From Candidatus Melainabacteria bacterium (GTDB lineage: Bacteria; Cyanobacteriota; Vampirovibrionia; Obscuribacterales; Obscuribacteraceae), in the NCBI GenBank assembly GCA_003242885.1, contig QKMZ01000015.1:269568-333567 (forward strand): DNA of 64,000 nt. The letters are read 5' to 3'. This document shows, one piece after another, positions 16,184 through 64,000 of the stretch (position 1 is its first letter; each line of letters opens with the position of its first letter). The notes beneath the pieces were generated by a model that saw nothing but the letters and a program-made list of their open reading frames with translations, was not told the origin of the DNA and made no database searches. A program made the position numbers and the translations under genes.

Positions 16184-16256
16184 TAGGGTTAGAGGGATTC
16201 GAACCCTCTTCTCCGGTTTGAGAGACCGGCGTCCTTTCCCGGTAGACGATAACCCC
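16184..16256 (-). tRNA. tRNA-Glu (anticodon CUC)
   Basis: - 73-nt cloverleaf.
- Acceptor stem GGGGTTA/TAACCCT with a G1-U72 wobble.
- D arm GTCT..GGAC.
- Anticodon stem CCGGT/ACCGG with loop CTCTCAA.
- 4-nt variable region.
- T arm GAGGG-TTCGAAT-CCCTC and discriminator A.
- CCA is not encoded. Confidence 0.85.
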
Positions 16257-16325: not shown

Positions 16326-16346
16326 GGGCGACGCATGGCGTCGACC
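16326..16346. repeat. copy of the dispersed 21-nt palindromic element
   Basis: GGGCGACGC-ATG-GCGTCGACC (one arm mismatch), between the stop of the 16411..17703 gene and tRNA-Glu. Confidence 0.7.
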
Positions 16347-26819: not shown

Positions 26820-28295
26820 TCAGCGTTTGCGTGGATTGGGCCAATTCAACTCAGCGCAAGCATCGTCGAAGCTGGTCCTCATACGGCTGCAGTACTGCAG
26901 TGCAATAGAAATTTGTTCTATTTTCATTACGCCATCGCGAAGCATTGGCACGCAGATGATGGCTGCTTCAAAGGTTTTGTCATCGAGTTTGTTGGCAGCG
27001 CCCAAGATTTTGGAAATGTCACCGCCATGTTTTTTGCGAACTTCGTTGGCTGTTTGAATGTCATTGTCAGTCAAAACTCCAGAGCGTACGAGCAAGTCGA
27101 GTGCGTCTTTTACAGACACCATTGCCTGCGCGGGGGCGCCACCACTTTGCGGCGCGCCGCCTCCGCCTGAAGATCCGGGGGCACCGTCTGCTAGTTCTTG
27201 CATAGCTACAGTAATGAATTGCTCTATAGTTTTTCCTTTGTTGTGATATCGGGCCAGCACGCGCGCTGCATCGCGCGCTGTCAGCTGTTTTTCCTCAACA
27301 AGGTCTTGCATTCTTATGGCTGCATCGAGCGATTGGCTGTTGAGCAAACCTGATTCAAGAAGAAGATTGTTGAGCGTGACATCAGTTCGTTTTGAGATTA
27401 ATCCCATATCGATGGGCATTGGACCTGGCCCGCTGGAAGGTGCCGGAGGCGGCGCTGGTGCGGGATAGCCGGGCTGGGGCGGTGGATATCCGGGTTGCGG
27501 AGGCGGATATCCAGGCTGCATTTGCGGATAGCCCGGCGGTTGCATTTGTGGTGCCGGATAGCCTGGCTGGGGGGGCGGATAGCCCGGTTGGGGCGGGGGA
27601 TAGCCTGGTGCCGGCGGCATGCCCGGATACTGTCCTGCCGGAGGCATACCAGGTTGCATCGGATATCCCGGCTGTGGCGGGTATCCTGGTTGCGGAGGCA
27701 TTGGTGGCATGGGCGGTGCCATTTGAGGCATCGGTTGCGGCACCGGAGGTGGTGGCGGAGCAGGAGGAGGCTCAGGCCTTGGCAGTGGATCCGGATATAC
27801 CGAAGACTGCGCCGGCATGCCGCTGTGAGTGCTTCTAGAAAGACTGTCGGTGACGCGTTGCTTCCAAATATCGTCCGGTTTTTTAACTTCTTCTTGTGCT
27901 TGAGCGGCAAGTGCCTCCGGGCTCGGTCTCAATTCTTCCGGAATAAATCCGCTTGATACTGGGGCCGCGCTGCCTTGACTCGTAGACATGATAATCATCT
28001 CGAGTACGAAATCGAGATCAGAGGGCGGAAATCCTTGGCTAAACAACATTGCATTGTCGCCGCCCGCTTCGTCATAAAGTGTCCAGACCGGGAAATCGCC
28101 ACCTTTTTCCCACAAAACCATAAGTAAGAAATTTCGGCCGACACCTGACCACGGCAATTCGATCGTGGTTCCCCGCCTGCGCTCGCACTCGTCAAACATA
28201 GTGCGAACCAATTTCATATTCGGCTGCTGCGGTTCGTGCGGCAGCCTCATGTTTTTGGGCGGCTCTTCCTTCTGCTGTGGTTTAGGCTTAAACAT
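26820..28295 (-). CDS. unknown N-domain + P/G/Y/Q-rich spacer + MshEN/T2SSE_N-like repeats (paralog A)
   Basis: 491 aa and a paralog of 49886..51607 at both ends. The C-terminal repeats include LNNLLLESGLLNSQSLDAAIRMQ and LVRSGVLTDNDIQTANEVRKKHGGDISKILGAAN. Confidence 0.75.
   Translation of the reverse strand: MFKPKPQQKEEPPKNMRLPHEPQQPNMKLVRTMFDECERRRGTTIELPWSGVGRNFLLMVLWEKGGDFPVWTLYDEAGGDNAMLFSQGFPPSDLDFVLEMIIMSTSQGSAAPVSSGFIPEELRPSPEALAAQAQEEVKKPDDIWKQRVTDSLSRSTHSGMPAQSSVYPDPLPRPEPPPAPPPPPVPQPMPQMAPPMPPMPPQPGYPPQPGYPMQPGMPPAGQYPGMPPAPGYPPPQPGYPPPQPGYPAPQMQPPGYPQMQPGYPPPQPGYPPPQPGYPAPAPPPAPSSGPGPMPIDMGLISKRTDVTLNNLLLESGLLNSQSLDAAIRMQDLVEEKQLTARDAARVLARYHNKGKTIEQFITVAMQELADGAPGSSGGGGAPQSGGAPAQAMVSVKDALDLLVRSGVLTDNDIQTANEVRKKHGGDISKILGAANKLDDKTFEAAIICVPMLRDGVMKIEQISIALQYCSRMRTSFDDACAELNWPNPRKR
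27414..27797 (-). repeat. coding low-complexity tandem repeat (PQPGYPP units)
   Basis: Residues about 167-294 of the 26820..28295 product are almost only P, G, Y, Q and M. This region also spawns long spurious ORFs in other frames. Confidence 0.8.
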
Positions 28296-43053: not shown

Positions 43054-44430
43054 ATGACCGTCGAGATTCCCACGCTAAACGACCAAAATTCGGAAGTGCA
43101 TTTCGAATTGAAGAAGGGCGAATCATTTTTGATTGGTAGATCGCAGGTGCGTAAGTCAGAGCGCCAGATTCTTATTCAAGACATAACTGTTTCCAATCAG
43201 CATGTTGAATTGTTTGCACATCCGGAAGGAATAAGTGCGAAGGATTTGAAGAGTACGAATGGAACTGCCATTGATGGCGAGTGGCTTCGTGCGGGAATTT
43301 CGTTTCCTGTGCGCAATGGTAGTTTGATGCTACTCGGAAAAAAGGGCACCGCGTTTCTCCAGGTGTTTTTCGATTCGAATGGCGATGGCACGCAGAAAGT
43401 AACTGTTCTAAGAACGTCTCCAAAGATTGATGAGGAAACCGAAAACATCGGTGAGGATTCGGAGGTTGCACAATGGCTCGAACGCTGTCGCGAAACCGAT
43501 ACGGCGATTTGTCCTGTTTGCCATAAAACCTATGATGGAAAAAAGGTTTTGATTTGTCCGGCGGATGGTGGCTATCTCGGTAGGCGTGAAGACCCGCAAG
43601 GTGGACCGGTAGCTGCAAAACACTACAAGTTGTGCAACTACATAGGCACTGGGTCACTCACTGAAGTCTACAAAGTCGAGCACGTGCGATTGGACCGCCC
43701 GTACGCACTTAAGGTATTTCATTCCGGTGTTCATCGCGAAACCGAAACTGCTCACATAATTCAATCCGCCAAGCAATGGGCGCGATTGCAACATGCCTCA
43801 ATCGCATCTGTAGTCGAATGGGGTTGGCTCACGAAAGACGAGCTCTTCATCGTCATGGAGTATTTCCAAAATCCATCGTTGGAGCAGTACGTCAAAACAA
43901 ACGGACCGCTCTCGGTGCAAGAGCTTGTGAAAGTATTTGTCCCTGTATGTAACGCACTAAAATACGCGCATGCACAGGGGGTTTTTCACAGCAATCTGAA
44001 GTTAAGTAAGATATATGTCTCGAATCTAAAAGCACATCCGGTTGTGAAAATTTCCGATTTCGGATTGACTGACAAATTGGTGAAGAGCTTAGGATGGGTC
44101 AAAGCAACGTTGCGAACGCGCGACCAAACGGGAGAACCGCTCACAACCAGCCCTGAATACTGGCAAGGCGAAGGTCTGACAGGTGCTTCTGATATTTATG
44201 CGATTGGTTGTGCCATGTATCACGCGCTAACGGGCGTTCCAGTTTTTGAAAAGAAAAGAACAATGGAGACGATTGCCGCACATATCTATTCGGAGCCTGC
44301 ACCGATTCCAGAGAAGCTTCAAGTCCCGCAGGCGATGCGCGATATCGTAGAGCGTTGTTTGAAGAAACAACCAGAAGAGCGGTATCAAACGATAGATGAA
44401 TTGATCTCGGCATTGGAAACCATGGGTTAG
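43054..44430 (+). CDS. FHA domain - zinc ribbon - Ser/Thr-kinase-like domain (predicted pseudokinase)
   Basis: - FHA motifs IGRS...VSNQHVEL...STNGTAIDG.
- Zinc ribbon CPVCHKTYDGKKVLICPADGG.
- Kinase markers YALKVF, ISDFGL, TSPEY and DIYAIGCAMYH are present.
- The catalytic loop reads FHSNLKLSK. Confidence 0.8.
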   Translation: MTVEIPTLNDQNSEVHFELKKGESFLIGRSQVRKSERQILIQDITVSNQHVELFAHPEGISAKDLKSTNGTAIDGEWLRAGISFPVRNGSLMLLGKKGTAFLQVFFDSNGDGTQKVTVLRTSPKIDEETENIGEDSEVAQWLERCRETDTAICPVCHKTYDGKKVLICPADGGYLGRREDPQGGPVAAKHYKLCNYIGTGSLTEVYKVEHVRLDRPYALKVFHSGVHRETETAHIIQSAKQWARLQHASIASVVEWGWLTKDELFIVMEYFQNPSLEQYVKTNGPLSVQELVKVFVPVCNALKYAHAQGVFHSNLKLSKIYVSNLKAHPVVKISDFGLTDKLVKSLGWVKATLRTRDQTGEPLTTSPEYWQGEGLTGASDIYAIGCAMYHALTGVPVFEKKRTMETIAAHIYSEPAPIPEKLQVPQAMRDIVERCLKKQPEERYQTIDELISALETMG

Positions 44431-44458
44431 ATTTCTACCAACAATTAGGAGTGGGCGA

Positions 44459-45298
44459 ATGGTTACATCTACAATTTCTCCGATCGAAGAATTTCATGCA
44501 CTGCACGAAAAGGGGTGTTTTGTAATTCCCAATCCATGGGATATCGGCTCGGCTAAAATACTTGAGCACTTGGGCTTTAAGGCGCTCGCCACAACATCTG
44601 CCGGCTTCGCTTTTTCTCAAGGGTTGCCTGACACTATTGATGCGCTAGACATGGAGATGGTGCTCGCTCATACTCGTGAGATTGTGTCAGCGACAAGGCT
44701 GCCAGTAAACGCAGATTTTCAGAATGGCTACGCCGACTCGCCGGATAAGGTTGCTGAAAATGTAAAACTCTGTGTGAAGACTGGCGTTGCGGGAATTTCT
44801 ATTGAAGATGCCACGGGTGATGAGTCAAACCCTTTGTACGAGCGCGAGTTAGCTATTGAAAAAATCAAGGCTGCAAGAAAAGCAATTGATGATGGAGAAT
44901 CAAAACCGGTCTTAACGGCACGTTGCGAAGCGTACCTCGTTGGTGCGCCGGATGCTTTTAAAATAACTCTGGATCGTCTCGTTGCTTACGCTGATGCTGG
45001 CGCAGACTGCCTTTTTGCACCGATGGTGAGCGACCCTAAAGAGATTGAGGCAATAGTAAAATCGGTTGTTCCAAAGCCGGTCAACGTGATTATCTCCAAC
45101 TCGACCACGGGACTCAACGTTAAGCAGCTTGCAGATTTAGGTGTTCGTCGCATTTCCGTTGGTTCTGCCCTTGCACGTACGGCATACGGTGCCTTCATCA
45201 ACTCCGCAAAAACAATTCTGGACACAGGAACATTCGACAGTTTCAGCTCTGCCGCATCCTTTGCAGAAATGAATGGGATTTTCTCTGCGAAGAAATAA
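44459..45298 (+). CDS. isocitrate lyase / PEP mutase family enzyme (2-methylisocitrate-lyase-like)
   Basis: PNPWDIGSAKILEHLGFKALATTSAGFA, PVNADFQNGY, AGISIEDA and TARCEA are motifs typical of this superfamily. Confidence 0.8.
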   Translation: MVTSTISPIEEFHALHEKGCFVIPNPWDIGSAKILEHLGFKALATTSAGFAFSQGLPDTIDALDMEMVLAHTREIVSATRLPVNADFQNGYADSPDKVAENVKLCVKTGVAGISIEDATGDESNPLYERELAIEKIKAARKAIDDGESKPVLTARCEAYLVGAPDAFKITLDRLVAYADAGADCLFAPMVSDPKEIEAIVKSVVPKPVNVIISNSTTGLNVKQLADLGVRRISVGSALARTAYGAFINSAKTILDTGTFDSFSSAASFAEMNGIFSAKK

Positions 45299-45331
45299 AA
45301 GTCTGCGATTCCAGAACTGCTTGGTTTGAAC

Positions 45332-45697
45332 CTAGTCGTTGACGCCGATTTCAGTGAAGAGATAGGCGCCTTTTACCTTTTCGAAAATGTAGATATCATC
45401 GTTGACAAAGACCATCCATGCCGTTTTGTCTTTGACTGGTGTTTGTTTCAACAAGGCGTCTCTCTTCTTCTTGGAAAAGATTTGGTTGCAATAGACAATG
45501 AATTGCTTCCTGTCCATCGGCTTTTCGTAAGAGTTGTAGGGCAGGCGTGTCATAGAAGCGATTGCTTCTTTATCGTTCTTCTGCAGCGCCGCTTTGAATT
45601 TTGTCCAATATGCATCGAATTCAGCGTCCTTCGCAAACGCGGCAGATGCAGAAAATGCGATGAGTGCGAAGAGCGCGATCAAAGTTCTATTGAGCAT
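45332..45697 (-). CDS. secreted hypothetical protein
   Basis: Start taken at the Met giving signal peptide MLNRTLIALFALIAFSASAAFA. The ORF opens at 45754. Confidence 0.5.
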   Translation of the reverse strand: MLNRTLIALFALIAFSASAAFAKDAEFDAYWTKFKAALQKNDKEAIASMTRLPYNSYEKPMDRKQFIVYCNQIFSKKKRDALLKQTPVKDKTAWMVFVNDDIYIFEKVKGAYLFTEIGVND

Positions 45698-45747
45698 GTA
45701 AATCTCCAATTGAAACAGGCGCAGGCCTACTAGATTGATAGCCCATT

Positions 45748-47055
45748 GTGGCATCGGTACCGCATATAATATCCCATGTCTTTATGAGGAATCTCAGCTT
45801 GCGGCATCCTAAAGCAAGAATCATTCTGTTTTTGTCTGTTGTGCCGCTACTCTTGGCGTTCTTATTCCTTGGCAGTAAGACATACAACAAGTTTGGTTCT
45901 TTGGACTCTAAACACCGGACAGGGTGGAGTCAAAAGGATCTCATTATCACCTACAGCTGTTCTCCACCGCCGGAAGAACCTTATGTAAAGGCGATTGCGG
46001 ATCAAGGCTACAACCTCTTGCCGATTGCGGAGGATGCTCTGCCATTTGCTGAAAAGTACAACGTCAAGGTTTTGCTTCAGCATGGTCTCTTCAATGTCAA
46101 AACGATGGAAAGTCCAATCGAACTTGAGCAGCTAAATGCGCTGATTGATCGAGTTAAAGATAATCCTGCGCTTGAAGGCTATTACATCTTCGACGAACCT
46201 CAGGAAGTTGAATTTCCGAAGCTTGCAAAACTTGTTCGACACATTAAAGCGCGAGATCCCCACCATTTTTGCTTCGTCAATTTGCTGCCAATATTTGGTG
46301 TCAGAACAAAGAAAATCAAAGACCCGTCGCTGATCTACAAAGATTACATCAATGAATACATCAGACAGTTTAAGCCAGATTTGCTTAGTTATGACTACTA
46401 CACATTTGTCAAATACTCGAATTCACCAGCTGCAGGACTCTACTTTATTCACCTTCGGCTGATGCGGGAATGTGCAAGGAAGGCCGAATTGCCATTTATG
46501 AACATCATTCAGGCGTCGCAATTCCAGGTGAGAGATTGGGATATGCCGACTCCTGCACAGCTGCGGTGGCAAGTTTATACTTCGCTCGCTTACGGTGCCA
46601 GGGCTATCAATTATTTTCTGTACTGGGGACCGAAGTCGTTTGCAGGGATGTATCGTGATGGTGTTGCAATCCCGTTGGTCGACGCTGCCGCTCTCTTAAA
46701 CAAAGAGATGAAAGCGTTGAGCTCGACGCTTATGTCGATGGAGTCACTCTACATATTTCAAACTGACCCACTACCACCGGGTGCGTTGCCGATGCCATTT
46801 GGATGCCCGTTACAAATTACCTCACCTGGCCAGTTTGTAGTTGGAGTTTTTGGCGAAGACCGGAAAGAGAAGGCGTTCATGATCGTCAATCGTGATTTTT
46901 CAAAGTCCGTTGTTGCGAGAGTAAAAGTGCTTGGAGCCGAGGCGCTTAGTGAATTGCAGCGCAGCGACTCTAGCTGGAAGACAGTCAACCCGAATCAAAA
47001 TGGGGAATTTGAGATTTTACTTGAACCCGGCGATGGACGGTTCTTTAAGTTCTAG
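45748..47055 (+). CDS. hypothetical protein, possibly a TIM-barrel glycoside-hydrolase-like enzyme
   Basis: 435 aa. N-terminal TM or signal segment. YYIFDEP, FVNLLP and INYFLYWGP resemble clan GH-A-like patterns, but I cannot assign a family. GTG start. Confidence 0.5.
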   Translation: MASVPHIISHVFMRNLSLRHPKARIILFLSVVPLLLAFLFLGSKTYNKFGSLDSKHRTGWSQKDLIITYSCSPPPEEPYVKAIADQGYNLLPIAEDALPFAEKYNVKVLLQHGLFNVKTMESPIELEQLNALIDRVKDNPALEGYYIFDEPQEVEFPKLAKLVRHIKARDPHHFCFVNLLPIFGVRTKKIKDPSLIYKDYINEYIRQFKPDLLSYDYYTFVKYSNSPAAGLYFIHLRLMRECARKAELPFMNIIQASQFQVRDWDMPTPAQLRWQVYTSLAYGARAINYFLYWGPKSFAGMYRDGVAIPLVDAAALLNKEMKALSSTLMSMESLYIFQTDPLPPGALPMPFGCPLQITSPGQFVVGVFGEDRKEKAFMIVNRDFSKSVVARVKVLGAEALSELQRSDSSWKTVNPNQNGEFEILLEPGDGRFFKF

Positions 47056-49675
47056 AGTTTTTCGGAATTGAAAATTTGAAGGTGCTTCCTTTTCCTTCTT
47101 CGCTCTCGACGGAAATCTCTCCGCCGTGCAATTCTACAATTGCCTTGCAGATTGCGAGACCCAAACCGGAGCCACCTGATTTGGTGTGGTCTTGCACGCT
47201 AACTTGCTGGAAGCGGTCGAAAATGTTTGCAATTTTGTCTTCAGGAATACCGCGCCCTTCGTCTTTAATGCGGATAACAACGCTCCCGTTTTCAGATTCT
47301 GCGGTGAGTTTTATAGATGAGTCTCTGGGTGAAAATTTGATTGCGTTTGAAACCAGATTTGTAAGCACGCGAGAAATTTTGTCTTCGTCGACATAGAAAG
47401 TTAAGTCGTCGCTATCAGAACTCTCTGCCCCAATATTGTTGCTGTCAGAATCAGACCGGTCGACGCATGGCGTCGACCCTACGTTAGACTGATGCGTCGC
47501 CCCTGCTCTAGGCGTCGCCCCTGCTCTAGGCGTCGACCGTACGCAGACGATGGAAACGCCCGATTCTGCTGCCAGTGGTGAGAGTGATTGAGCCGTGTGT
47601 TCTAGAACTTTCGAAGCAGAAACATTTTCCTTTTCAAGTTCCATCATGCCCGCTTTGATCTTCTCTACGTCAAGGAGATCGTTGATTAAGCTGAGCATTC
47701 TACTTGCGTTTCTATCCGCAAGACCGAGCATTTTATTGGCTTTCTCGGTTAGCTCACCAAGCAATCCAGTTGCCAGCATCTCGTGAAAATTTCGAATTGT
47801 TGAAAGTGGAGTCCGCAAATCGTGAGTGATCATTGCCACCACTTCCTGCTTCATGCGCTCCGCTTCTTTGCGTTCTGTAATGTCGTGAATGACGCAGAAT
47901 AATGCCTTGTCTGCTTCTGACCAAGTTGCAGACCAGAGCGTGTCGATTTGCTTTCCGTCTTTCCTTACCATGCGTACTTCAAGAAGTTCTGGATCGCTTC
48001 CAGCCTTGAGTTTTTCGATTGCTGCGATAGTTGGTTTTCTATCGTCGAGAAAAACAAGATCGATGAAGACCTTGCCAAACATCTCGTCATGCGTGTAGCC
48101 TAGTATGGTAAGTGAAGCTGGATTGACCGCGCTGAAGTGTCCATGCGCATCAATAGAACAGATTACATCGCTGGCGTTTTCAATAACTGCGCGTTCCTTC
48201 CTTCGTGATTCGGAAAGTGCGTCAGCCATCGTGTGGAAGGTTCGATCCAGTGCTGCGATTTCGTCATTGCCCGCACTTAGCGGATTCAGAGGTAGATTGC
48301 TCGCTAATCTCAGAGCATTGTCACCCATTATACTGACGCGTTTTGTGATACTACGCACGGTGAGCGCGATGATGCTTAAGCATGTAAGAATAATTAGGCA
48401 TTCGGCTATCAGTACGAAGTTTATTCTGCTTCTGTACCAATCCTGCTGCTTGGCGCTACTGGTCGTTCTTTCCATCTCTTGATTCAGCATCGACATGAGA
48501 TTGATCGACGACACATCCTTAATGTTGTTTTGAACTTGCCTCCAAGATGTTTGGCGCGCTGGATTGCTTTCAAGCATCTGGGATTTCCATGTTGTCCATT
48601 CTCTATCCAGTTGGCGGTGCATGTTTTCCAGCAGAGTAAAAACGCGATCGGAAGCGGCCTTGGACGACTGTATGATCGAAAGTTGATCAGGATCTTTGCT
48701 TCGCAATTCTTTGAGCATTTCGAAACGAAAGTTGATCAGGTTGCGCTTGTCCATGTATTTCACAATCAAGTCATCTTCAGCATCGGGAAAAAGCGGATGC
48801 ACGCGATGTTCCGGTCTATTGTCTGGGCGCCCTGCAAGCTTGATGTCCGAGAATATGGATTGAAAGATTGCTGTGTCGATATCTTTGAAGCATGCATCAA
48901 TTTCTTTGATAGCGCTCACCATCTTCAAGGATTCGACATTTCCTTTTGCCTCCGCATCGCTTTGCTGCTGCAGGCTGTGCAGCAGGGCGGCGAAGCCAAT
49001 CAGTTGCAATATCAAAATGACAGTAATCCAGTTGAGACGCTCTGTAATCTTCTTTGCCAGAAGCAGAGCGATTAGCAAAAGGGCAATTGTTGTGAAGCAT
49101 AAGCAGGCGACTTGAATATCATTTACTTGATGGGTCAGCTCCGTCTGGTGAAACTTGAGCTTTTCTGCCTGAGTGTTTAGATTGCTCCTAAGCTCTTTCA
49201 ATTGGTCTGTGATAACGGCCAACTCATGGTTTTGAACTTGCGCCCATTTCTGATCAACTACATGTTGCTGGTTGAGGGGCACCAATTTGTACTGATGCGA
49301 TCGCAGTGCCAGCGTCGCGTTGATGTGTTGCATGGCTGTGTCTTTTGCCGTTGCAATCACACTTTGTTTTTCTTTGTCGTTTTCGACCAACTTTTCGGCT
49401 TCTGCGAATTCGGCATCAAGGTTGGCAATATTTTTTTGAACAATTTGCACGTCTGGTGTTTGTATTGGATCGGCGCAGGTGGCGACTATGTCCAACGCGC
49501 GGCGCGATATGCTGTCGATCTTATTGACTAGGGCTGTGCTGTTCGATGCTTGTGCTGCATCGGTTCGCGCACTCTCACCAAGTTTGAAAATCGTGATCCA
49601 AAACATCGACTCGAAAATGAGTCCTGTGACAATAAGACCGATAAGTTTTGGAGACAGTTTTTTGCCGATTTGCAC
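47045..49675 (-). CDS. sensor histidine kinase (TM - long helical sensor - TM - HAMP - PAS - HisKA - HATPase_c) carrying an in-frame repeat-derived insertion
   Basis: H-box VAMITHDLRTPLSTI, N-box LTNLVSNAIKFSP, G1 DEGRGIP, G2 GGSGLGLAICK. There is an extra stretch of about 40 aa between HisKA and the N-box. Confidence 0.85.
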   Translation of the reverse strand: MQIGKKLSPKLIGLIVTGLIFESMFWITIFKLGESARTDAAQASNSTALVNKIDSISRRALDIVATCADPIQTPDVQIVQKNIANLDAEFAEAEKLVENDKEKQSVIATAKDTAMQHINATLALRSHQYKLVPLNQQHVVDQKWAQVQNHELAVITDQLKELRSNLNTQAEKLKFHQTELTHQVNDIQVACLCFTTIALLLIALLLAKKITERLNWITVILILQLIGFAALLHSLQQQSDAEAKGNVESLKMVSAIKEIDACFKDIDTAIFQSIFSDIKLAGRPDNRPEHRVHPLFPDAEDDLIVKYMDKRNLINFRFEMLKELRSKDPDQLSIIQSSKAASDRVFTLLENMHRQLDREWTTWKSQMLESNPARQTSWRQVQNNIKDVSSINLMSMLNQEMERTTSSAKQQDWYRSRINFVLIAECLIILTCLSIIALTVRSITKRVSIMGDNALRLASNLPLNPLSAGNDEIAALDRTFHTMADALSESRRKERAVIENASDVICSIDAHGHFSAVNPASLTILGYTHDEMFGKVFIDLVFLDDRKPTIAAIEKLKAGSDPELLEVRMVRKDGKQIDTLWSATWSEADKALFCVIHDITERKEAERMKQEVVAMITHDLRTPLSTIRNFHEMLATGLLGELTEKANKMLGLADRNASRMLSLINDLLDVEKIKAGMMELEKENVSASKVLEHTAQSLSPLAAESGVSIVCVRSTPRAGATPRAGATHQSNVGSTPCVDRSDSDSNNIGAESSDSDDLTFYVDEDKISRVLTNLVSNAIKFSPRDSSIKLTAESENGSVVIRIKDEGRGIPEDKIANIFDRFQQVSVQDHTKSGGSGLGLAICKAIVELHGGEISVESEEGKGSTFKFSIPKNSRT
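47458..47543. repeat. cluster of the dispersed palindromic element plus direct sub-repeats, inside the histidine kinase CDS
   Basis: GGTCGACGC-ATG-GCGTCGACC-CTACG, then GCGTCGCCCCTGCTCTAG twice in tandem, then GCGTCGACCGTACG. Confidence 0.8.
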
Positions 49676-49885
49676 GCTGTTTTCTCAATCGTTTTTTTGC
49701 CTTCGGTCTCTATCGACAATATCATGTAGCATTTTTACCTAACCTGCAAAGCCCGGTTAGGTGGTTTGAATGAGGCTCCACGGGTCTGATAAAGCTGGAA
49801 TTGCTTACTAAATAAGATATATAGGTTGATCACTGTTTTCAGGCGGGCACAATTATTCTGAATATTAAATAGTGGGACCTCGTTG

Positions 49886-51607
49886 ATGTACAAACCGAAG
49901 CGCCAGGTTCGCCTGGACCCGATGAAATATCCGCCCCGTATGAGTGACCTGAGGAATCTTCTTCAGGAGGCCACCGTAAATAAGGGTTGCACAGTTGAAT
50001 TGCCGTTTGCTGCGATGAACAGCAAGTGGAGTTTGACCGTCAGGTCTGAAATCGGCGGTACACAGGAGCCCATGTGGACACTTTATGAAGGCGAAGGCTC
50101 CAGTTCGCGAGTCGTGTGGAGCACGCCGTTTGATGACGTTGAGCTTTTGCAGGACGTACTGCATTTGTCTCTGCCTCAAGACCTTCAGAAAGTAGCGATG
50201 CCGCCCGAGGTCGCTGCCGCGCCAGCCAAGTCCGAGCCCGAGCCTAATGGCCAGCCCGACGCCCCGCACTCTTTTGCCGCGTTCGATAAGTCGAGCGCGC
50301 TTATGAAAGAATCGCATACGAATATGCCTGCAGCACAGCAGCCGCAAGCGCCTGGACAACAGCCAGTCAATCCGCAACAACAGCCGAATCAACAGCAGCA
50401 GATGCCACCGGAGCAGCAGATGCCGCCCGGATATCCGCAACCAGTTCCCCCTGGTTATCCACAGCAAATGCCACCTGGCTATCCGCAGCAAATGCCGCCT
50501 GGTTATGGATATCCGCCTGGTTATCCGCAGCAAATGCCGCCTGGATATGGTTATCCGCCGGGCTACGGCTACCCGCCTGGCTATGGATATCCGCCTGGTT
50601 ATCCGCAGCAGATGCCTCCGGGATATGGCTATCCACCTGGATACGGCTACCCTCCGGGCTATCCCCAGCAGATGCCGCCTGGTTATCCGCCGCAACAAAT
50701 GCCACCAGGGTATCCACAACAACCCGGCTATCCTCAACCGCAAGATCCTTCTCAGCCTGCTCAACAAGGGCAGAACGCTGCGTCTGGAACTTACCCTGCA
50801 CACCAAAATCCTTATGCATCTGGAAGTTATCCTGCGGTCGAGCCCTACGGATCTGGCTCTTATCCTGCGATTGGTGGCGGTGGAAAAGATTTGATCGAGA
50901 AGCGTCCCAATTTCTTGTTGGGTCATTTCCTCGTTGAGGCAGGCTTGATTCCAGAACCAACTCTTGATGCGGCTTTGCAGTTGCAGGGGATGGTTAAGGC
51001 TGGTGCGCTCAATCCGAAACAAGCTGGTGAAGCGGTTCGCCGCGCGCACACACGTGGTGGCAAAGTAGACACAAATACTTTTACTGCAACGCCTGCTAAG
51101 AAAGTAGATTCTTCGGACATCCAGGGAACCGCGCCACCGCTTGGTCAAGTTCTCATTGAAGCCGGTCTGATAAGCGTTCCTGTTCTCAAAGCAGCTTTGA
51201 ATTTGCAGGAAGTCGTTCGTACTGGTGCATTGACTCGTGAAGAAGCACTGGAGGCTTTCATTCGAGAGCATTATGGTGTCGACGCAAAAAGCGCGCGCAA
51301 AGCCATCGCTAAGAATTCCATGGATTCGAAAGTTATCGGCTTGCTTGTAAAAGCTGGCTTGCTCACAGAGCAAGACGTGCAAACTGCTCAGACAGTGAAG
51401 AAGAAGCACGGCGGCGATGTGGTCAAAATTCTGACTGCGGCCGGCAAACTCGATAAGGTCTTGCTTGGCGCTGCGAATCAGTGCCATGATCTGATTGAGC
51501 AAAAACGATTGAAGGTTGAACAAGCAATCATCGCGTTGCACTATTGCGAGAGAATGCGAGTAAGTTTTGACGATGCGGTTGAAGAGATGGGATGGGAAAA
51601 GCCATAG
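49886..51607 (+). CDS. unknown N-domain + P/G/Y/Q-rich spacer + MshEN/T2SSE_N-like repeats (paralog B)
   Basis: Begins MYKPKRQ (paralog A begins MFKPKPQ). Shares the N-domain, (PPGYGY/PPGYPQQM)n repeats and C-terminal repeats, and ends SFDDAVEEMGWEKP. Confidence 0.8.
   Translation: MYKPKRQVRLDPMKYPPRMSDLRNLLQEATVNKGCTVELPFAAMNSKWSLTVRSEIGGTQEPMWTLYEGEGSSSRVVWSTPFDDVELLQDVLHLSLPQDLQKVAMPPEVAAAPAKSEPEPNGQPDAPHSFAAFDKSSALMKESHTNMPAAQQPQAPGQQPVNPQQQPNQQQQMPPEQQMPPGYPQPVPPGYPQQMPPGYPQQMPPGYGYPPGYPQQMPPGYGYPPGYGYPPGYGYPPGYPQQMPPGYGYPPGYGYPPGYPQQMPPGYPPQQMPPGYPQQPGYPQPQDPSQPAQQGQNAASGTYPAHQNPYASGSYPAVEPYGSGSYPAIGGGGKDLIEKRPNFLLGHFLVEAGLIPEPTLDAALQLQGMVKAGALNPKQAGEAVRRAHTRGGKVDTNTFTATPAKKVDSSDIQGTAPPLGQVLIEAGLISVPVLKAALNLQEVVRTGALTREEALEAFIREHYGVDAKSARKAIAKNSMDSKVIGLLVKAGLLTEQDVQTAQTVKKKHGGDVVKILTAAGKLDKVLLGAANQCHDLIEQKRLKVEQAIIALHYCERMRVSFDDAVEEMGWEKP
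50423..50737 (+). repeat. coding tandem repeat (18-nt PPGYGY and 24-nt PPGYPQQM units)
   Basis: Directly visible reiteration of ccgcctggttat(ggatat)/ccgcagcaaatg units. Confidence 0.85.
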
Positions 51608-53468: not shown

Positions 53469-53489
53469 GGGCGACGCCATGCGTCGCCC
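53469..53489. repeat. perfect copy of the dispersed 21-nt palindromic element
   Basis: GGGCGACGC-CAT-GCGTCGCCC, a perfect 9-bp inverted repeat, in opposite orientation to the other copies judged by the flanking CGTAGC. Confidence 0.8.
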
Positions 53490-53491
53490 GC

Positions 53492-53511
53492 GGGCGGCAT
53501 CAATGCCGCCC
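53492..53511 (-). terminator. GC-rich hairpin at the end of the LemA-RR-HK-TPR gene string
   Basis: GGGCGGCAT-ca-ATGCCGCCC, a perfect 9-bp stem about 95 nt after the stop of 53607..55232. No clear U-tract follows. Confidence 0.4.
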
Positions 53512-53606: not shown

Positions 53607-55232
53607 TTACCCGGGGAACCGGCGCTTCGGCGCATGAAATGGGAAGGTGAAGATAGTGTTGCCGATTGGCACTGTAATCATCACTTCTTCTTTGCGAGTG
53701 TTGAGGTAGAACAGCTGACCTGTTCTAGATTCGAACGGCTCCAGAGTGACTGGCACTAAGCCGAATGCACCTTGGTGGCGAGAGCGCACGAGGTCCTCTT
53801 CAATGACGGCTTGTGCTTGTTCTTCAAGCTCTTCAGGTGAGCGATTTAGCATGAACTTTTCGGGCGGTAAAATACGCTCTGTTCCGCCCCATTTGCCGTA
53901 GATGCCAAAAATATTCGGTCCGCGAAACATATCATGTCCCTTTGCTGGAACAAATCCGCGGACAACCCGTGTCTTTTGAATATTGGCTAGCCATGGGCGA
54001 TTATATGTGTAATCCCACATCGTTCGCTCGCGACGTCTGTAGTCGAAAGTGTTTTCCGGTATCAAAAGAAACGGTTTGTGAGGTTCGGCCAGTTCTGTGA
54101 GATTTGCCTTGCCGAGCCCGAGATCGACGCGTTTGTCGCCGATGTTTGTTATGCAAATCAGCACGCCCAGGATTTCCCAGCAGTCAACAATTGTGCATGC
54201 GACGCGTACTTGATTTGTGGCGAGGTACTTAAGCGGAAAGTCTGCGTCGGCGAACTCTTGCGACCTGGGACTTCCATCTTCCCACTTGAAGCGCACGCTG
54301 CCCTGGATTTTTGGTGGTTGTTCGAAGTTGACCGATTTGTCTTTGATACTGTAAGAACGCTCGAAATAGTCGCGCGAACGATTGCGTTTTCCGATTGAAT
54401 GATAAAACATTGCCGCATCACGCAGGGCATCAGCCAGATCCATAGAACGAGTACCGGGGCTCTGCTCCAAAATCTCTAGACCCTTTTGAAAGTCAGCGTG
54501 TGCCTCTTCACTCCAACCCTTTGCGCCGGCAATCGCTCCTCTGATGACGTAGCTCTCGCCAAGGTCGTGATCATGCGGATCCAGAAGTCTCTTTCTGATT
54601 TCCAGCGCTTCTTTTATTAGAGGCTCTGCTTTTGCAATCTTTCCTTGATGAAAAGCCACAGCTGCTGCGCCGTGCAACGCATGTGCGTACTCGCGGCTAC
54701 TCGTCCCATGCAGTTTTTTAGACTGGTCAATGCATTGCTGGTAAGTTTCTCCAGCTGCAATGTACTTCTCTTCGTGGAAGTATGCGTCTGCAAGGCCAAG
54801 GCGCGCAGCAATCAGTTGATCTGGCGTGGCGAAAAGCTTCTTCGCCTCTTTTATAGCTTCGAGAAATTTGCTTTGAGCTTCCTCATCAGCCCTTATTGCA
54901 GACGCTTTGAGGCCAGCGTTCATCAGGCGATCGAACATGCTTGCAGTTGAAGGCAAAGTCTGCGTCACTGCCGCTGAGGCCGCTTGGGTTGTACGTTTGA
55001 GAACTTGTTTCTCTCCATCGTCCGACTTTTCTGTTTCTATGTCTCTCTTGTTTGTTGTGTCCGCGCTGTCTCGTATTTTTGTGATGACTGAATTTTCGGT
55101 ACTTTCCGAGCGCTCAGCCTTCTCTTTTGAGTCGTCTGCAAAGTCGTCTGCATTTGCGGGCAAGGCTGCACCGAGAAAAAGCGCTGCGGACAGCGCCAGG
55201 CAAAGCGTTTGTCTGTAATAAGCCTCAGGCAT
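53607..55232 (-). CDS. secreted TPR protein with an unknown roughly 250-aa C-terminal domain
   Basis: The Met at 55232 gives signal peptide MPEAYYRQTLCLALSAALFLGAALPANA. Its ATG overlaps the kinase stop (ATGCCTGA). TPR units lie in the middle. The ORF opens at 55280. Confidence 0.7.
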   Translation of the reverse strand: MPEAYYRQTLCLALSAALFLGAALPANADDFADDSKEKAERSESTENSVITKIRDSADTTNKRDIETEKSDDGEKQVLKRTTQAASAAVTQTLPSTASMFDRLMNAGLKASAIRADEEAQSKFLEAIKEAKKLFATPDQLIAARLGLADAYFHEEKYIAAGETYQQCIDQSKKLHGTSSREYAHALHGAAAVAFHQGKIAKAEPLIKEALEIRKRLLDPHDHDLGESYVIRGAIAGAKGWSEEAHADFQKGLEILEQSPGTRSMDLADALRDAAMFYHSIGKRNRSRDYFERSYSIKDKSVNFEQPPKIQGSVRFKWEDGSPRSQEFADADFPLKYLATNQVRVACTIVDCWEILGVLICITNIGDKRVDLGLGKANLTELAEPHKPFLLIPENTFDYRRRERTMWDYTYNRPWLANIQKTRVVRGFVPAKGHDMFRGPNIFGIYGKWGGTERILPPEKFMLNRSPEELEEQAQAVIEEDLVRSRHQGAFGLVPVTLEPFESRTGQLFYLNTRKEEVMITVPIGNTIFTFPFHAPKRRFPG

Positions 55233-57123
55233 TTTTTTCTTCGTTGTCATCGTCGTCATCGTCTTCGTCTTCGAGATCATCGTATCCGGGCGGAGACTCA
55301 GGTAGTTTAAACCAAAACGTACTTCCTTTTCCCTCTTCTGACATGAGCCCTAGCTGACCCCCGTGCTGCTCGACAATTGCCTTGCAAATCGCCAAACCCA
55401 GTCCGCTGCCGCCCTTTTGCACACGGTCAGGGGTATTGACTTGCTCAAAACGCTCAAAAATTGATTGGTGATATTTTTCAGGAATTCCCGCTCCCCTGTC
55501 TATTACTTTTACTTCAGTAAGTGACTTGTTGACTGATGTGTCAACCGTTATTTTGCTGTTGTGAGGAGAGTATTTGATGGCATTGGAAAGCAGATTGACA
55601 AGCACTTGCACAAGCCGGTCGGGGTCTGCAATCAGCTGTGCCGATGTGCCGGTTTTTTCCAGCTTGATGTTTTCTATTTGAGCAAGATTGTGCACAGCGT
55701 CGAAAGCTCGCTCCACAATTTGATCCATGTCGCATTGTTTGTAGTTCATACGCAAGCGCCCAGCTTCCAATTTATCGATGTCTAGCAGATCGTTAATGAG
55801 TTTTATCAAACGCGTAACGCTGCGCTCGGCCAAGGCGACACTCTTTTGCCCTTGCGCGTTGAGTTCGCCATATATGTCTTCGGCAAGCAACGATAGGAAA
55901 CCCTGGACAGACGTCAGAGGTGACCGTAGTTCGTGGCTGACCATCGACACGAATTCTTGCTTAATACGTTCAACTTCGCGTCTCTCTGAAATGTCGAGAA
56001 TTACGAGCATGAATCTTGCTTCTTCAAATGCTTCGAATTCATTCACCGAGACTTCTACTGGGAATGACTCACCATCGGCTTTTGCGGCTTCAAGTTCTAA
56101 AATATGGTTGCGACCTTTTGTCAAAAGTTTTTGCAAAACGTCTTCAAGACCGGAAGCGGCTTCTTTGGGAAACAGCTTTTGAACGGGCAGGCCGGAGAGT
56201 ACCTCGATATCGTATGCGAACATTCTCTCTGTTGCCGGATTGATAGATTCAATCGCGCCTTCTTTGTTGATAATGATCAGCCCCGTCGGCATGGTTTCTA
56301 CGATTGTTCTTACGCGCTTTTCCGATTGCTGCAGGTTTTCCAAAACAGCATGCTCTTTCTCTGCTGCAACTTTTAATGCAACAGCCATTTCGTTGAAGAC
56401 CTTGTCCAAGTGGGCAATTTCGTCACCCCCCGGCAGTCGTGGGTTGAGTGGCAAACCGCTGGCAAGGCGATAGGTATTGTCCATAAGAACATTGAGTCGA
56501 CGCGCGGTGCCTCGATTGAAGTACACTGCTAGTGAGATTGCGATAATAATATTGAGCACAACGCCGGCAAGAAGAAGCTGTTTTGTTTTTTCCCGCGACT
56601 TAGCCTGCAGTTTGGGGCTGAGGTCTTCGATTTTGCGTTCTTCCAGAGCGAGTGTGTCGAACTTCGCCGCCAGCATGGGAATTTTGCTGCGCATGGAATT
56701 GAGGTAGCTTCGCGCTGATGCTTGTTCGCCCGAATCAATCATTTTTTTGACAGTGCGAAAATCGCTCACTGCGCTGTTCAGAAAAGCCTCCAGGTCATCG
56801 ACCTTTCTTTCTTCTTCCTTGTTGCCCGCGACCAGTTGCTTGAGTTCTTTAAAAACTTCGGGAATCAGCTCAGAGGCATGGTGGTAGCGCTGCGCCATGC
56901 TGAAGGTGCCAATCAGACCGTAGCCGGAAATGCCAGCAGCTTGTTGCGTCATCAGTGAGTGCAGCTTGTTCAATTCTTTGGAGATGGCACGGGCTCGTGC
57001 CTCGCGCTGGACTTCGCGCTCTGTTTCATTGAGCATCTGATACAACGTGGCGACGAACCCCAGCTCGAATATGAGCGGGATAGCAACTAGTATCAGACCT
57101 TTGTGGGAGAGCTTGAGTCTCAC
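55225..57123 (-). CDS. sensor histidine kinase (TM - helical sensor - TM - HAMP - PAS - HisKA - HATPase_c) with a poly-acidic tail
   Basis: H-box VSMVSHELRSPLTSV, N-box LVNLLSNAIKYSP, G2 GGSGLGLAICK. The C-terminus is YDDLEDEDDDDDDNEEKNA. Confidence 0.85.
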   Translation of the reverse strand: MRLKLSHKGLILVAIPLIFELGFVATLYQMLNETEREVQREARARAISKELNKLHSLMTQQAAGISGYGLIGTFSMAQRYHHASELIPEVFKELKQLVAGNKEEERKVDDLEAFLNSAVSDFRTVKKMIDSGEQASARSYLNSMRSKIPMLAAKFDTLALEERKIEDLSPKLQAKSREKTKQLLLAGVVLNIIIAISLAVYFNRGTARRLNVLMDNTYRLASGLPLNPRLPGGDEIAHLDKVFNEMAVALKVAAEKEHAVLENLQQSEKRVRTIVETMPTGLIIINKEGAIESINPATERMFAYDIEVLSGLPVQKLFPKEAASGLEDVLQKLLTKGRNHILELEAAKADGESFPVEVSVNEFEAFEEARFMLVILDISERREVERIKQEFVSMVSHELRSPLTSVQGFLSLLAEDIYGELNAQGQKSVALAERSVTRLIKLINDLLDIDKLEAGRLRMNYKQCDMDQIVERAFDAVHNLAQIENIKLEKTGTSAQLIADPDRLVQVLVNLLSNAIKYSPHNSKITVDTSVNKSLTEVKVIDRGAGIPEKYHQSIFERFEQVNTPDRVQKGGSGLGLAICKAIVEQHGGQLGLMSEEGKGSTFWFKLPESPPGYDDLEDEDDDDDDNEEKNA

Positions 57124-57227: not shown

Positions 57228-57310
57228 GGTCGACGTATGGCGTCGACCCTACGGTAACTTGACGGGTTGCATCGACCCTACGAACCTGACGCATGGCGTC
57301 GCCCCTACGG
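57228..57310. repeat. three copies or half-copies of the dispersed palindromic element in the RR-HK spacer
   Basis: GGTCGACGT-ATG-GCGTCGACC-CTACGG, then GGGTTGCATCGACCCTACG, then TGACGC-ATG-GCGTCGCCC-CTACGG. Confidence 0.8.
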
Positions 57311-57318
57311 AAGTTTGA

Positions 57319-58005
57319 TTATGCTTTATGCTCTGGCGCATGGAGTTTGTAGCCAACGCCATGAAGAGTTTGAATCACTGACTCTTCATTCTCGCCATCG
57401 ATTTTTCTGCGCAAACGTTTTATGCATGTGCGGACGGTTTCTGGTGCAGCATCATTTTCCGAATGCCAGACGCGGTCGAGCAATGCCTCAGCGCTAAACA
57501 CTTGATTCGGATGGCGCATCAAGAATTCGAGCAGAGCAAATTCTTTTGGCAACAGTCTAATGTCGGCACCATCTTTGGTGACAGCAAAAGTGCGTGGATT
57601 CAAGTTGATACCGGCTGCGCGCAACACGTTGTCGGTGACACTTATCGGGCGTCGAAGGAGCGCGCGTATACGCGCCGATAGCTCTTTCATGTGGAAAGGT
57701 TTCGTCAAATAATCATCGGCGCCTGAGTCCAGTCCCTGCTCAATCTGCTCAGCCAAATCTTGACCGGTGAGCATAAGCACAGGGGTTTTACCGCCGTTCT
57801 GTCGAAACTTCTTCAATATCTGAATGCCGTCGTAGACAGGCAATTGCCAGTCCAAGATAATCAAATCGTAGGAATAGATGCCGATGAGCTCCATAGCCTC
57901 ATCGCCCTTGGAGGCTGTTTCAATCAAATGATGGTCGTGTTTGAGCCAATCTTCGACGATTTGGCGCAGATCGAGATCGTCTTCAACTATCAGTATTTTT
58001 GCCAT
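57319..58005 (-). CDS. OmpR-family response regulator
   Basis: REC domain (ILIVEDD, LIILDWQLP, LTKPF) plus winged-helix output (LLPKEFALLEFLMRHPNQVFS...GVGYKL). Confidence 0.9.
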   Translation of the reverse strand: MAKILIVEDDLDLRQIVEDWLKHDHHLIETASKGDEAMELIGIYSYDLIILDWQLPVYDGIQILKKFRQNGGKTPVLMLTGQDLAEQIEQGLDSGADDYLTKPFHMKELSARIRALLRRPISVTDNVLRAAGINLNPRTFAVTKDGADIRLLPKEFALLEFLMRHPNQVFSAEALLDRVWHSENDAAPETVRTCIKRLRRKIDGENEESVIQTLHGVGYKLHAPEHKA

Positions 58006-62480: not shown

Positions 62481-64000
62481 ATGGGATTAAATCTGAAAAT
62501 CGGTCAGTACGGCTTGCTGGTGGCGCTGCTGCCGGTCTTCGTCGCTTTGCTGATTTTGGGATTTCTCGCGCTACAGCTTCAGGAATCTGAGAAGCAGGTT
62601 GAGCGGGAGAGGCAAGCCAAAACATTGATCATGGAGTCTTCCAACCTTCTTCAATGTTTGGACGAGATGAAGCGTGCACTTTCTGGTCTGGCGGAAAGCA
62701 ACGCGCCACTTTTCTCAATTGAGCTCCAAAAGAGGAAAGATCAGTTTGCCGGTTCGCTGAAGAAAATTGAGTCCGGGTTGGTTTCTGCTCCTCAAAAAGA
62801 AGCGTTTGTTCAATTGAAGAGTGCTGCGCTTTCTGCTGTTCAGGAGATTGATGAAACTCAAAAGGCACTCGCAACTGCGCCAAAGGAAGTAGTCGAGTTT
62901 CGCATGAAGGAATCCGACAGGCAGTTGCAGGCTTTGAGAAGCACCCTTAGCAGCAAGCAAGAAGCTTTTAGCAACGCGACTTCCGATATTCAGCAATCGA
63001 GTGCACAGCAAGGTGAAAGCAGTCGCCAGTTTGTGTGGTTAATTCTGCTTGTAGGAACTGTTGCGATGGTCGTTGTCGCTGTTGTTTTATCTCTGGGCTT
63101 TGCGCGTCGGATCACCGGACGATTGAGAATTCTCACTGACAATAGTTTTCGTATCGCCTCGAGAATGCCTCTAAACGAAAAGATGAAGGGCTCGGATGAA
63201 ATTTCTGAGTTGGATAAGAGTTTTCACTGGATGGCAAGTCAGCTCGAAGATTTGACGCGCAAAGAACGCGCGATGACAGAAAATGCTGTGGACGTCATTT
63301 GTTCGATCTCCGACGACGGCAATTTCCGCGAAGTCAATTCCGCTGCCATAAAATTTTGGGGATACAAACCGGAAGAACTACTTGGGCAAAAACTCATTTC
63401 ACTTGTTCGCGAGTCCGATAAAGAGAAGACATCTGAGATGTTTGCATCTGCAAAAAAAACTGGAGATCGAATCGAGCTAGAAAATGCGATTAAGCACAAA
63501 AATGGCAACTTCGTCGAAGTGCTCTGGAGTGGAAGTTGGTCATCAATCGATGGCGCGATGTTTTGTGTAGCTCACGATATAACCGAGAAAAAGCAGATTG
63601 AAAACCTCAAACGTGATTTCGTGAATATGGTCAGTCACGATTTGAGAACACCGCTGACTTCGATTCAAGCTTTTTTGGAAATGCTCTCTGCTGGGTTTTA
63701 TGACAGTACTCCAGAGAAGATGCACAGCAAGGCTAAATATTCAGAAGCGGATGTTGGTCGTTTGATTTCAATGATCAACAGTTTGCTTCAACTTGAAAAA
63801 ATGGAAGCTGGTCACATCGAAATCGTTGCTTCTCATACGCAAGTTGAAGATGTCATTGACAGGTCTTTCAATTCGGTTCAATCTCTTGCAGAACGTTCGA
63901 AAATTACGCTTGTTAAAGATATTTGTGATGCTGTAATCTTCGCGGACGAAGATCAGCTCATACAGGTTCTAGTCAATCTCTTGTCGAATGCAATCAAGTT
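62481..64000 (+). CDS. sensor histidine kinase, 5' portion (runs off the window; absent from the supplied ORF track)
   Basis: - My own translation from ATG 62481 is open to the window edge.
- MGLNLKIGQYGLLVALLPVFVALLILGF (TM1), then a helical sensor.
- FVWLILLVGTVAMVVVAVVLSLGF (TM2), then HAMP (DEISELDKSFHWMASQLEDL) and PAS.
- H-box VNMVSHDLRTPLTSI, and the N-box starts LVNLLSNAIK at the edge. Confidence 0.85.
   Translation, partial: MGLNLKIGQYGLLVALLPVFVALLILGFLALQLQESEKQVERERQAKTLIMESSNLLQCLDEMKRALSGLAESNAPLFSIELQKRKDQFAGSLKKIESGLVSAPQKEAFVQLKSAALSAVQEIDETQKALATAPKEVVEFRMKESDRQLQALRSTLSSKQEAFSNATSDIQQSSAQQGESSRQFVWLILLVGTVAMVVVAVVLSLGFARRITGRLRILTDNSFRIASRMPLNEKMKGSDEISELDKSFHWMASQLEDLTRKERAMTENAVDVICSISDDGNFREVNSAAIKFWGYKPEELLGQKLISLVRESDKEKTSEMFASAKKTGDRIELENAIKHKNGNFVEVLWSGSWSSIDGAMFCVAHDITEKKQIENLKRDFVNMVSHDLRTPLTSIQAFLEMLSAGFYDSTPEKMHSKAKYSEADVGRLISMINSLLQLEKMEAGHIEIVASHTQVEDVIDRSFNSVQSLAERSKITLVKDICDAVIFADEDQLIQVLVNLLSNAIK

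Follow-up and report, generated by a model that had tools for sequence, protein, structure and literature searches.

The question raised by this locus is whether a repetitive extragenic palindromic (REP) element has become a translated part of a working signalling enzyme and, if so, how it came there and how it has persisted. The locus lies in a 64,000-nt stretch of DNA from a Candidatus Melainabacteria bacterium of the family Obscuribacteraceae (contig QKMZ01000015.1, positions 269,568 to 333,567; this whole stretch is called the window below) and contains the gene of a membrane sensor histidine kinase with extra residues in its catalytic and ATP-binding (CA) domain. An earlier note, made from the letters of the window alone, had proposed that a REP-like element was absorbed here as a surface loop, or else that the gene is decaying. 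The first proposal is supported on three counts, i.e. the element belongs to a GTAG-tagged REP family, the insert is modelled as a disordered segment in a turn of the CA domain, and the gene is under strong purifying selection. The most probable history, to which we assign a probability of about 0.7, is an ancestral insertion of a REP doublet that was tolerated as a disordered loop, later underwent insertions, deletions (indels) and outright losses, and kept its palindrome through maintenance at the DNA level.

Anatomy of the insert

The insert peptide CVRSTPRAGATPRAGATHQSNVGSTPCVDRSDSDSNNIGAESSDSDDLTFY corresponds to residues 711-761 of the kinase, in agreement with the stretch of about 51 residues originally noted; at this place two paralogous kinases of the window were said to have about 10 residues, and the peptides of both were located (Table 1). 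The extent of the insert was defined against P0099, the closest insert-free orthologue (833 aa). By this measure the extra segment amounts to about 43 codons, with approximate boundaries, and directly follows a conserved Cys codon (47543-47545). It is established that 85 nt of this segment (47458-47542) are units of the GTAG-tagged REP family. Read along the coding strand, the elements follow in the order TGC, GTAC-GGTCGACGCC, TAGAGCAG-GGGCGACGCC, TAGAGCAG-GGGCGACGCA, TCAGTCTAAC, GTAG-GGTCGACGC-CAT-GCGTCGACC, and then GG TCT GAT and so on. A complete hairpin is formed by the last unit only (REP-B), which appears on the plus strand as GGTCGACGC-ATG-GCGTCGACC followed by CTACG at 47458-47483; the upstream units are left arms in the same sense. 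In other words, the palindromic repeat cluster described earlier at 47405-47539 does contain repeat units, but only one complete palindrome, and its part at 47405-47457 is not derived from the repeat.

The tandem doublet that had also been pointed out is present as well: the exact 18-nt repeat GCGTCGCCCCTGCTCTAG, in plus-strand register at 47494-47529, is confined to this site. The duplication is made of same-sense copies of the left arm and is absent from every orthologue. The Ser/Asp-rich tail of the loop has homologous counterparts behind the palindrome of the other insert-bearing orthologues. A search of the window against Rfam gave no family at the insert site, a tRNA gene being the sole hit.

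Table 1. Coordinates of the features discussed in the text (positions within the window)
Feature	Position	Strand	Remarks
Host gene, membrane sensor histidine kinase	47045..49675	-	876 aa; PAS, HisKA, HATPase_c
H-box HDLRTPL	47804-47824	-	motif in host kinase
N-box	47333-47359	-	motif in host kinase
G1 box	47246-47263	-	motif in host kinase
F box	47204-47221	-	motif in host kinase
G2 box	47156-47176	-	motif in host kinase
Extra segment	47414..47542	-	boundaries approximate
REP-A, degenerate unit	47529..47542	-	GTAC + left arm GGTCGACGCC; right arm lost
Tandem 18-nt duplication	47493..47528	-	TAGAGCAG-GGGCGACGCC then TAGAGCAG-GGGCGACGCA; encodes repeated TPRAGA
REP-B, complete unit	47458..47482	-	GTAG + GGTCGACGC-CAT-GCGTCGACC; 9-bp stem, 3-nt loop; read V-G-S-T-P-C-V-D-(R)
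Ser/Asp-rich loop tail (R)SDSDSNNIGAESSDSDD	47405..47457	-	not of repeat origin
Paralogue peptide	55600-55668	-
Paralogue peptide	63903-63971	+
Intergenic REP copy GGGCGACGCATGGCGTCGACC	16326..16346	-	without exact GTAG tag
tRNA gene	16184-16256	-	Rfam RF00005, 61 bits; 70 nt from REP copy
Intergenic REP copy GGGCGACGCCATGCGTCGCCC	53469..53489	+	downstream of TPR gene
Second, different GC-rich hairpin GCGGGCGGCATCAATGCCGCCC	53490-53511		directly adjoins REP copy
Intergenic REP array	57228..57309	-	three direct units, GTAG tag on each; start-to-start spacing 29 and 27 nt
CHASE3-PAS kinase gene	55225..57123		paralogue of host kinase
Response-regulator gene	57319..58005
FHA + Ser/Thr protein kinase gene	43054..44430	+
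574-aa ORF	49883..51607	+	long degenerate PPGYPQQM/PPGYGY repeats
DNA repeat families D1-D3	50405-50722		within the 574-aa ORF
Gly/Tyr/Pro-coding repeats	27474-27700		on the other strand from the 574-aa ORF

The host kinase and the position of the insert

The domains flanking the insert are readily recognized (Pfam: HisKA, residues 608-676, 7.6e-18; HATPase_c, residues 763-872, 5.8e-33). The protein has the features of an HK853-like HisKA kinase, with the H-box His in the dimerization and histidine phosphotransfer (DHp) domain and the N, G1, F and G2 boxes in a Bergerat-fold CA domain; all five motifs were located, and the catalytic residues are invariant in the alignment of orthologues. The open reading frame (ORF) is open throughout the insert, as had been claimed. 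Against the three closest relatives, the ratio of nonsynonymous to synonymous substitution rates (dN/dS) of the window gene is 0.06-0.08 overall and 0.03-0.05 in the DHp-CA region, i.e. the gene is under strong purifying selection. The low dN/dS and the complete motif set in an intact ORF lead us to reject the idea of a decaying gene, and the kinase appears to remain functional despite the insert.

The DHp-CA part of the protein (residues 601-876) was modelled with AlphaFold2, giving a mean predicted local distance difference test (pLDDT) score of 80.9, with values of about 95 for the DHp helices and the CA domain. Model residues 122-154 (722-754 of the protein) have pLDDT values below 50 and no secondary structure, and they lie between two confident strands, 107-113 (VSIVCV) and 159-162 (LTFY). 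The ATP lid lies elsewhere, at model residues 216-238. The structure prediction that had been proposed as a check thus places the insert in a disordered region outside the lid. The best structural matches to the model are HK853 and WalK (HK853 chains, E = 8e-22, TM 0.64-0.74), and other HisKA kinases match as well. In the sequence alignment to HK853 the insert stands in place of a turn of about 6 residues, NVLFESN-VPCPVEAYID. The model and the alignment support a disordered surface loop in the tight turn that joins the first two beta-strands of the CA domain. The case resembles a protein "decorated" by a palindromic element in that the in-frame element, the translation of which is predicted from the open frame, occupies a predicted surface site of a constrained protein.

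Two observations concern the surroundings of the kinase gene. A gene for an FHA and Ser/Thr protein kinase lies a few genes away in all the orthologous loci (L001, L002, L005, L006, L007 and L119). The histidine kinase itself looks like an orphan since there is no adjacent response regulator.

The REP family

The GC-rich element of the kinase had been said to recur at three intergenic sites, and this is the case (Table 1): the window contains four matches to the palindrome, compared to 0.03 expected by chance, and the three besides the kinase all lie between ORFs. With the array counted by its units, at least 6 REP units are present in the 64-kb window. The hairpin that adjoins the copy at 53469-53489 could be a terminator or belong to another repeat family. 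The three-unit array is found within a gap of 196 nt that separates the response-regulator gene from the gene of the paralogous CHASE3-PAS kinase. L005 has just 11 nt at this place, and L119 and L002 have 74-90 nt; the array could therefore be an insertion within an operon that is specific to the lineage.

An exact-pattern scan with one genome per species gave at least 109 DNA stretches with matches. Among the matches listed, most come from Obscuribacterales, Obscuribacteraceae and "Melainabacteria" metagenome-assembled genomes (MAGs), with dozens of copies in single genomes. The consensus of 112 copies from Obscuribacterales-type loci is tTGTAG-GGGCGACGC-CAT-GCGTCGCCC-Gg. GTAG directly precedes the stem on its 5' side in 86 of these copies, and stem positions 3 and 19 covary (G-C in 93, T-A in 15, mismatched in 4). 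Close pairs of units (n=49) are convergent in 35 and direct in 13 cases. These are the properties by which GTAG-type REPs are recognized, i.e. a small, imperfect palindrome (stem of 5-13 bp, short loop) in many copies, GTAG at the foot of the stem, and a mainly extragenic location in dimers and clusters, and the element in the kinase is a genuine member of such a family.

The MAG CAZJLR01 contains at least 9 convergent doublets with a start-to-start spacing of 71 nt and a conserved spacer of about 50 nt, found in both orientations (one at L038, L040, L047, L081 and L092, the inverse at L017, L094 and L103). The common spacing and the conserved spacer are the signature of REPIN-like units that are copied as a whole; inverted doublets with a conserved spacer are likewise characteristic of REPIN-RAYT systems, in which RAYT is the REP-associated tyrosine transposase. 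The spacer showed no resemblance to the tail in the kinase when the two were compared. A RAYT is a candidate mobilizer of the Obscuribacterales REPs.

Residence within genes is rare for this family. Of the 171 copies, exact or near-exact, that were surveyed in 880 kb of Obscuribacterales-type DNA, the only ones with 60 or more codons on either side within an ORF of at least 250 aa were the kinase copies plus one implausible Arg/Cys-rich frame, and intragenic copies make up less than 1% of the REP copies sampled. Ten other candidate REP-decorated ORFs all looked on inspection like spurious Arg/Cys-rich frames or 5' extensions.

We also note that the identical element, GTAG + GGGCGACGCCATGCGTCGCCC, occurs in Gemmatimonadales MAGs (L010, L015, L030, L037, L044, L062, L086 and L111; GC 0.65-0.68; GTAG in 8 of 12 copies), and further in one Desulfovibrio MAG and one Dehalococcoidia MAG (L011 and L084). 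This occurrence in distant groups suggests either a cross-phylum class of REPs or a horizontal spread of its mobilizer. In the searchable literature we found no report that links REPs with Obscuribacter or Melainabacteria and no description of the present GTAG-REP/REPIN-like family; REPIN-like doublets are thus apparently undescribed for Obscuribacterales.

Distribution of the insert among orthologues

Nine clusters of orthologues with conserved synteny were found in a collection of 5.8 billion proteins, and a search with the C-terminal part of the protein added only two more orthologues, both partial. The insert is shared by P0001 (94% amino acid identity to the window protein outside the loop), P0002 (66%) and P0005 (63%). 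A short turn without insert is seen in P0003, P0004, P0007, P0008, P0009 and P0097, which are 59-67% identical if of full length; P0097, a fragment of 195 aa, is 65% identical over the query. The possibility raised earlier, that the insert might be specific to the strain, therefore does not hold for the insert as such, which is shared with orthologues at 63-66% identity. It is nevertheless polymorphic within the clade of at least 90% identity to which the window belongs, because it was repeatedly deleted there.

In every insert-bearing orthologue the insert starts after a conserved TGC-GTN, and the palindrome takes the form GTA[GC]-G[GT]TCGACGC-CAT-GCGTCG[AC]CC in one common codon phase. Next come C[GT]G-TCY-G... 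and a tail rich in Ser, Asp and Glu, which is homologous over 10-15 codons and is not seen at the intergenic REP copies. Palindrome, phase, orientation and tail are common to the window, L004, L001 and L002/L003. Moreover, L002 and L004 both have a degenerate upstream unit, homologous to REP-A and with a decayed right arm, exactly 30 nt upstream of REP-B. The agreement in phase, tail and doublet geometry speaks for a common origin of the insert in these orthologues.

Four states of the loop occur within the window's own clade. The window has the complete insert (876 aa), P0001, P0104 and P0105 have a shorter one (867 aa), P0103 has a partial loop, CV-AR-NEDDSNSED (840 aa), and P0098-P0102 are empty, with the loop C-NSDD (833 aa). 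The 833-, 840- and 867-aa forms fall into one cluster. The nucleotide tree calculated without the loop has the topology (window+,(L118 partial,(L004+,L119-))) with bootstrap values of 99-100%, so the empty site of L119 is a derived deletion and at least one loss is demonstrated. For the patchy pattern in the other two clades repeated loss is the simplest reading, and we infer a single ancient origin of the insert. The "CVAR" of P0103 was at one point considered a microhomology deletion footprint inside the palindrome; this was dropped as the DNA (TGT-GTG-GCG-CGA) gives no clean footprint.

A separate observation concerns contig L120, which is 99.1% identical to positions 43166-47483 of the window. 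The homology stops exactly at the GTAG end of the palindrome (L120:1-300). Upstream, where the first ~730 codons of the kinase would be expected, L120 has a further intact REP unit (GGTCGACGCCATGCGTCGAGC) and AT-rich DNA unrelated to the kinase. The junction reflects either an assembly break or, in a strain nearly identical to that of the window, a rearrangement or insertion at the REP cluster.

Conservation of the palindrome

The peptide of the loop evolves fast: the window protein and P0001 are very different in the loop and 94% identical elsewhere. The palindrome follows a different course, with 24-25 of its 27 nt identical between lineages. Identity at 4-fold degenerate third positions is 0.32-0.41 for the gene as a whole, as compared to 6/7, 5/5 and 5/5 inside the palindrome. 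In both the window and L004, each lineage carries its own variant on both of its units. As the palindrome is conserved far beyond the gene-wide synonymous level while the loop peptide changes rapidly, the constraint seems to act on DNA or RNA and not on the peptide.

This pattern points to conversion, turnover or a constraint at the nucleotide level. The palindrome could be kept by conversion or replacement from the many copies in the genome, by self-templated correction of quasi-palindromes (a known process), by the arrival of new units beside an existing one, or by selection on a hairpin. We favour conversion or turnover with moderate confidence.

Proposed history and alternative explanations

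The history that we consider most probable can be outlined as follows. A direct doublet of GTAG-tagged REP units would have entered the turn between the first two beta-strands of the CA domain in an ancestor of several Obscuribacteraceae lineages. It would have been tolerated because the REP has no stop in the frame used and because the turn is solvent-exposed, and it would now be translated as a disordered loop of about 45 residues. Afterwards the loop would have been near-neutral and prone to indels: one arm of the upstream unit decayed, the lineage of the window gained the 18-nt tandem duplication, and sister lineages repeatedly lost the insert in whole or in part. The palindrome would have been held near-identical most likely by conversion or replacement from genomic copies together with self-templated correction of the inverted repeat; a role of peptide selection is less likely.

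Several points weigh against this history. A single origin requires at least 4 losses, and three independent insertions at a hot spot would be fewer events. The insert-free L006 has TGC-GTA-G at the site, a possible preferred target. For gene conversion, a tract of 21-27 nt is about the shortest on which homologous recombination is known to act. Finally, a limited search of the window and of ~0.9 Mb of related REP-centred loci, by tblastn with E. coli RAYT and IS608 TnpA and by HUH/Y regular expressions, gave no credible RAYT/Y1 transposase.

Some of these points would fit recurrent, independent insertion, in which the DNA of the turn (TGC-GTA-G...) is the preferred target of a REP-mobilizing enzyme and the same codon position was hit separately in three kinase clades. 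Such insertion would explain why the palindrome looks young, i.e. near-identical at a time when synonymous sites elsewhere are saturated, and also why the insert is present patchily in three clades with insert-free sisters in each. The number of units differs (1 in L001, 2 in L002 and L004, more in the window and L120), CGTAG is present at the empty site of L006, and the 196-nt gap of the REP array in the window versus 11 nt in L005 means that intergenic REP content turns over. However, the four insert-bearing lineages agree in phase, orientation and a non-REP tail unlike anything beside the intergenic copies, the empty site is demonstrably derived in the window's clade, and L002 and L004 agree in the doublet spacing and in the decay of the right arm upstream. 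We therefore regard independent insertion as unlikely.

A further explanation is that the palindrome is beneficial as nucleic acid and the segment dual-coding, either as an mRNA hairpin (a translational pause before the CA domain folds, or a barrier to decay) or as a DNA site for a REP-binding protein. The conservation beyond synonymous expectation agrees with this, as do the fast-evolving peptide flanks of a slowly evolving palindrome. The four differences between the window and L004 palindromes are a compensatory pair (T-A to G-C), an A-T to G-T wobble change and a change in the loop, and the RNA hairpin of REP-B is stable (-16.9 kcal/mol, z = -3.3). On the other hand, the orthologues folded in a larger context are no better than shuffled sequences (z -0.3 to -0.6), and conversion from genomic copies explains the conservation equally well. 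An essential function of the palindrome is made less likely by the clean deletions of the insert in several lineages with an otherwise conserved kinase, and by outer stem pairs that are broken in L001, L002 and L120. All in all, selection of this kind appears improbable to us.

A more speculative possibility, to which we give similarly little credence, is that the palindrome is an actively maintained, dual-purpose REP "landing pad" in coding sequence, kept by the REP-handling machinery or by hairpin selection. Its turnover by gain of units, tandem duplication and deletion would yield a fast-evolving, disordered Ser/Thr/Asp-rich loop usable for regulation, e.g. phosphorylation by the neighbouring FHA-Ser/Thr kinase.

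An assembly error at the GC-rich repeat, or a pseudogene in the making, is scarcely credible: the 18-nt doublet is indeed unique, the exact window protein is absent from a collection of 15 billion proteins, and the kinase homology of the ~99% identical L120 ends exactly at the palindrome, but many independent assemblies (JGI, NCBI, ENA, Logan) have in-frame inserts with this palindrome, on contigs of up to 688 kb, and the gene is intact and constrained as described above.

Other repeats in the window

Repeats of another kind are found in the 574-aa ORF and, as akin Gly/Tyr/Pro-coding repeats, at a second site (Table 1).

Comparison with known systems

The hallmarks of the present family are those published for GTAG-type REPs (PMC3733652; PMC3116915). 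Di Nocera, De Gregorio and Rocco (2013, BMC Genomics 14:522, PMC3733652) compiled GTAG and CGTC REPs that lie within the ORFs of known proteins, where intragenic dimers and groups encode 20-30 aa and clusters 43-82 aa, and proposed neutral residence in flexible loops and linkers. Their GTAG REPs share with ours the small stem-loop, the 5' GTAG tag, the mostly intergenic location, the head-to-head dimers and clusters, and the minority within ORFs; the present case agrees with this category in all the features tested. Neither Obscuribacterales/Melainabacteria hosts nor the present palindrome appear in the main text of that paper, and its host proteins are mostly involved in replication and repair, whereas here the host is the CA domain of a histidine kinase.

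The classic example of in-frame insertion into protein genes is the Rickettsia palindromic elements (RPEs; Ogata et al. 2000, as summarized in PMC10969869 and PMC3733652). According to these summaries, RPEs share with the present case a palindromic repeat read in frame within functional proteins, at sites presumed compatible with the fold, kept across species and sometimes excised. RPE-1 elements, at ~100-150 bp, were found dozens of times in genes of a reduced intracellular genome, whereas here the unit has 25 nt and the host lineage is free-living and has a large genome.

REPIN-RAYT systems (Bertels and Rainey 2011, PMC3116915; Nunvar et al. 2010) resemble the present family in the GTAG-tagged palindrome, its many copies in each genome, the convergent doublets whose spacer is conserved, and the persistence among related lineages. 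Their defining feature, a single-copy RAYT gene with REPs on its flanks, was not found in the DNA searched (the window and ~0.9 Mb of related loci), and the doublet in the kinase is direct whereas that of REPINs is inverted.

As intragenic REPs and RPEs are established, the general understanding of such elements is unchanged by our results. What is new is the host lineage, the class of host protein, and unusually clear evidence on age, loss and maintenance. The GTAG-REP/REPIN-like family is documented here in non-photosynthetic relatives of cyanobacteria (Obscuribacterales), and the kinase offers a clean, phylogenetically resolved case of mobile palindromic DNA turned into protein sequence in a signalling enzyme. 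Since full, partial and empty states coexist among close relatives, it also provides a natural experiment on the insertion tolerance of folded domains and on the behaviour of a repeat family inside a gene. Beyond the earlier catalogue of intragenic REPs (PMC3733652), it adds evidence at the level of orthologues for the age of such an insert, its repeated loss and its conservation at the nucleotide level.

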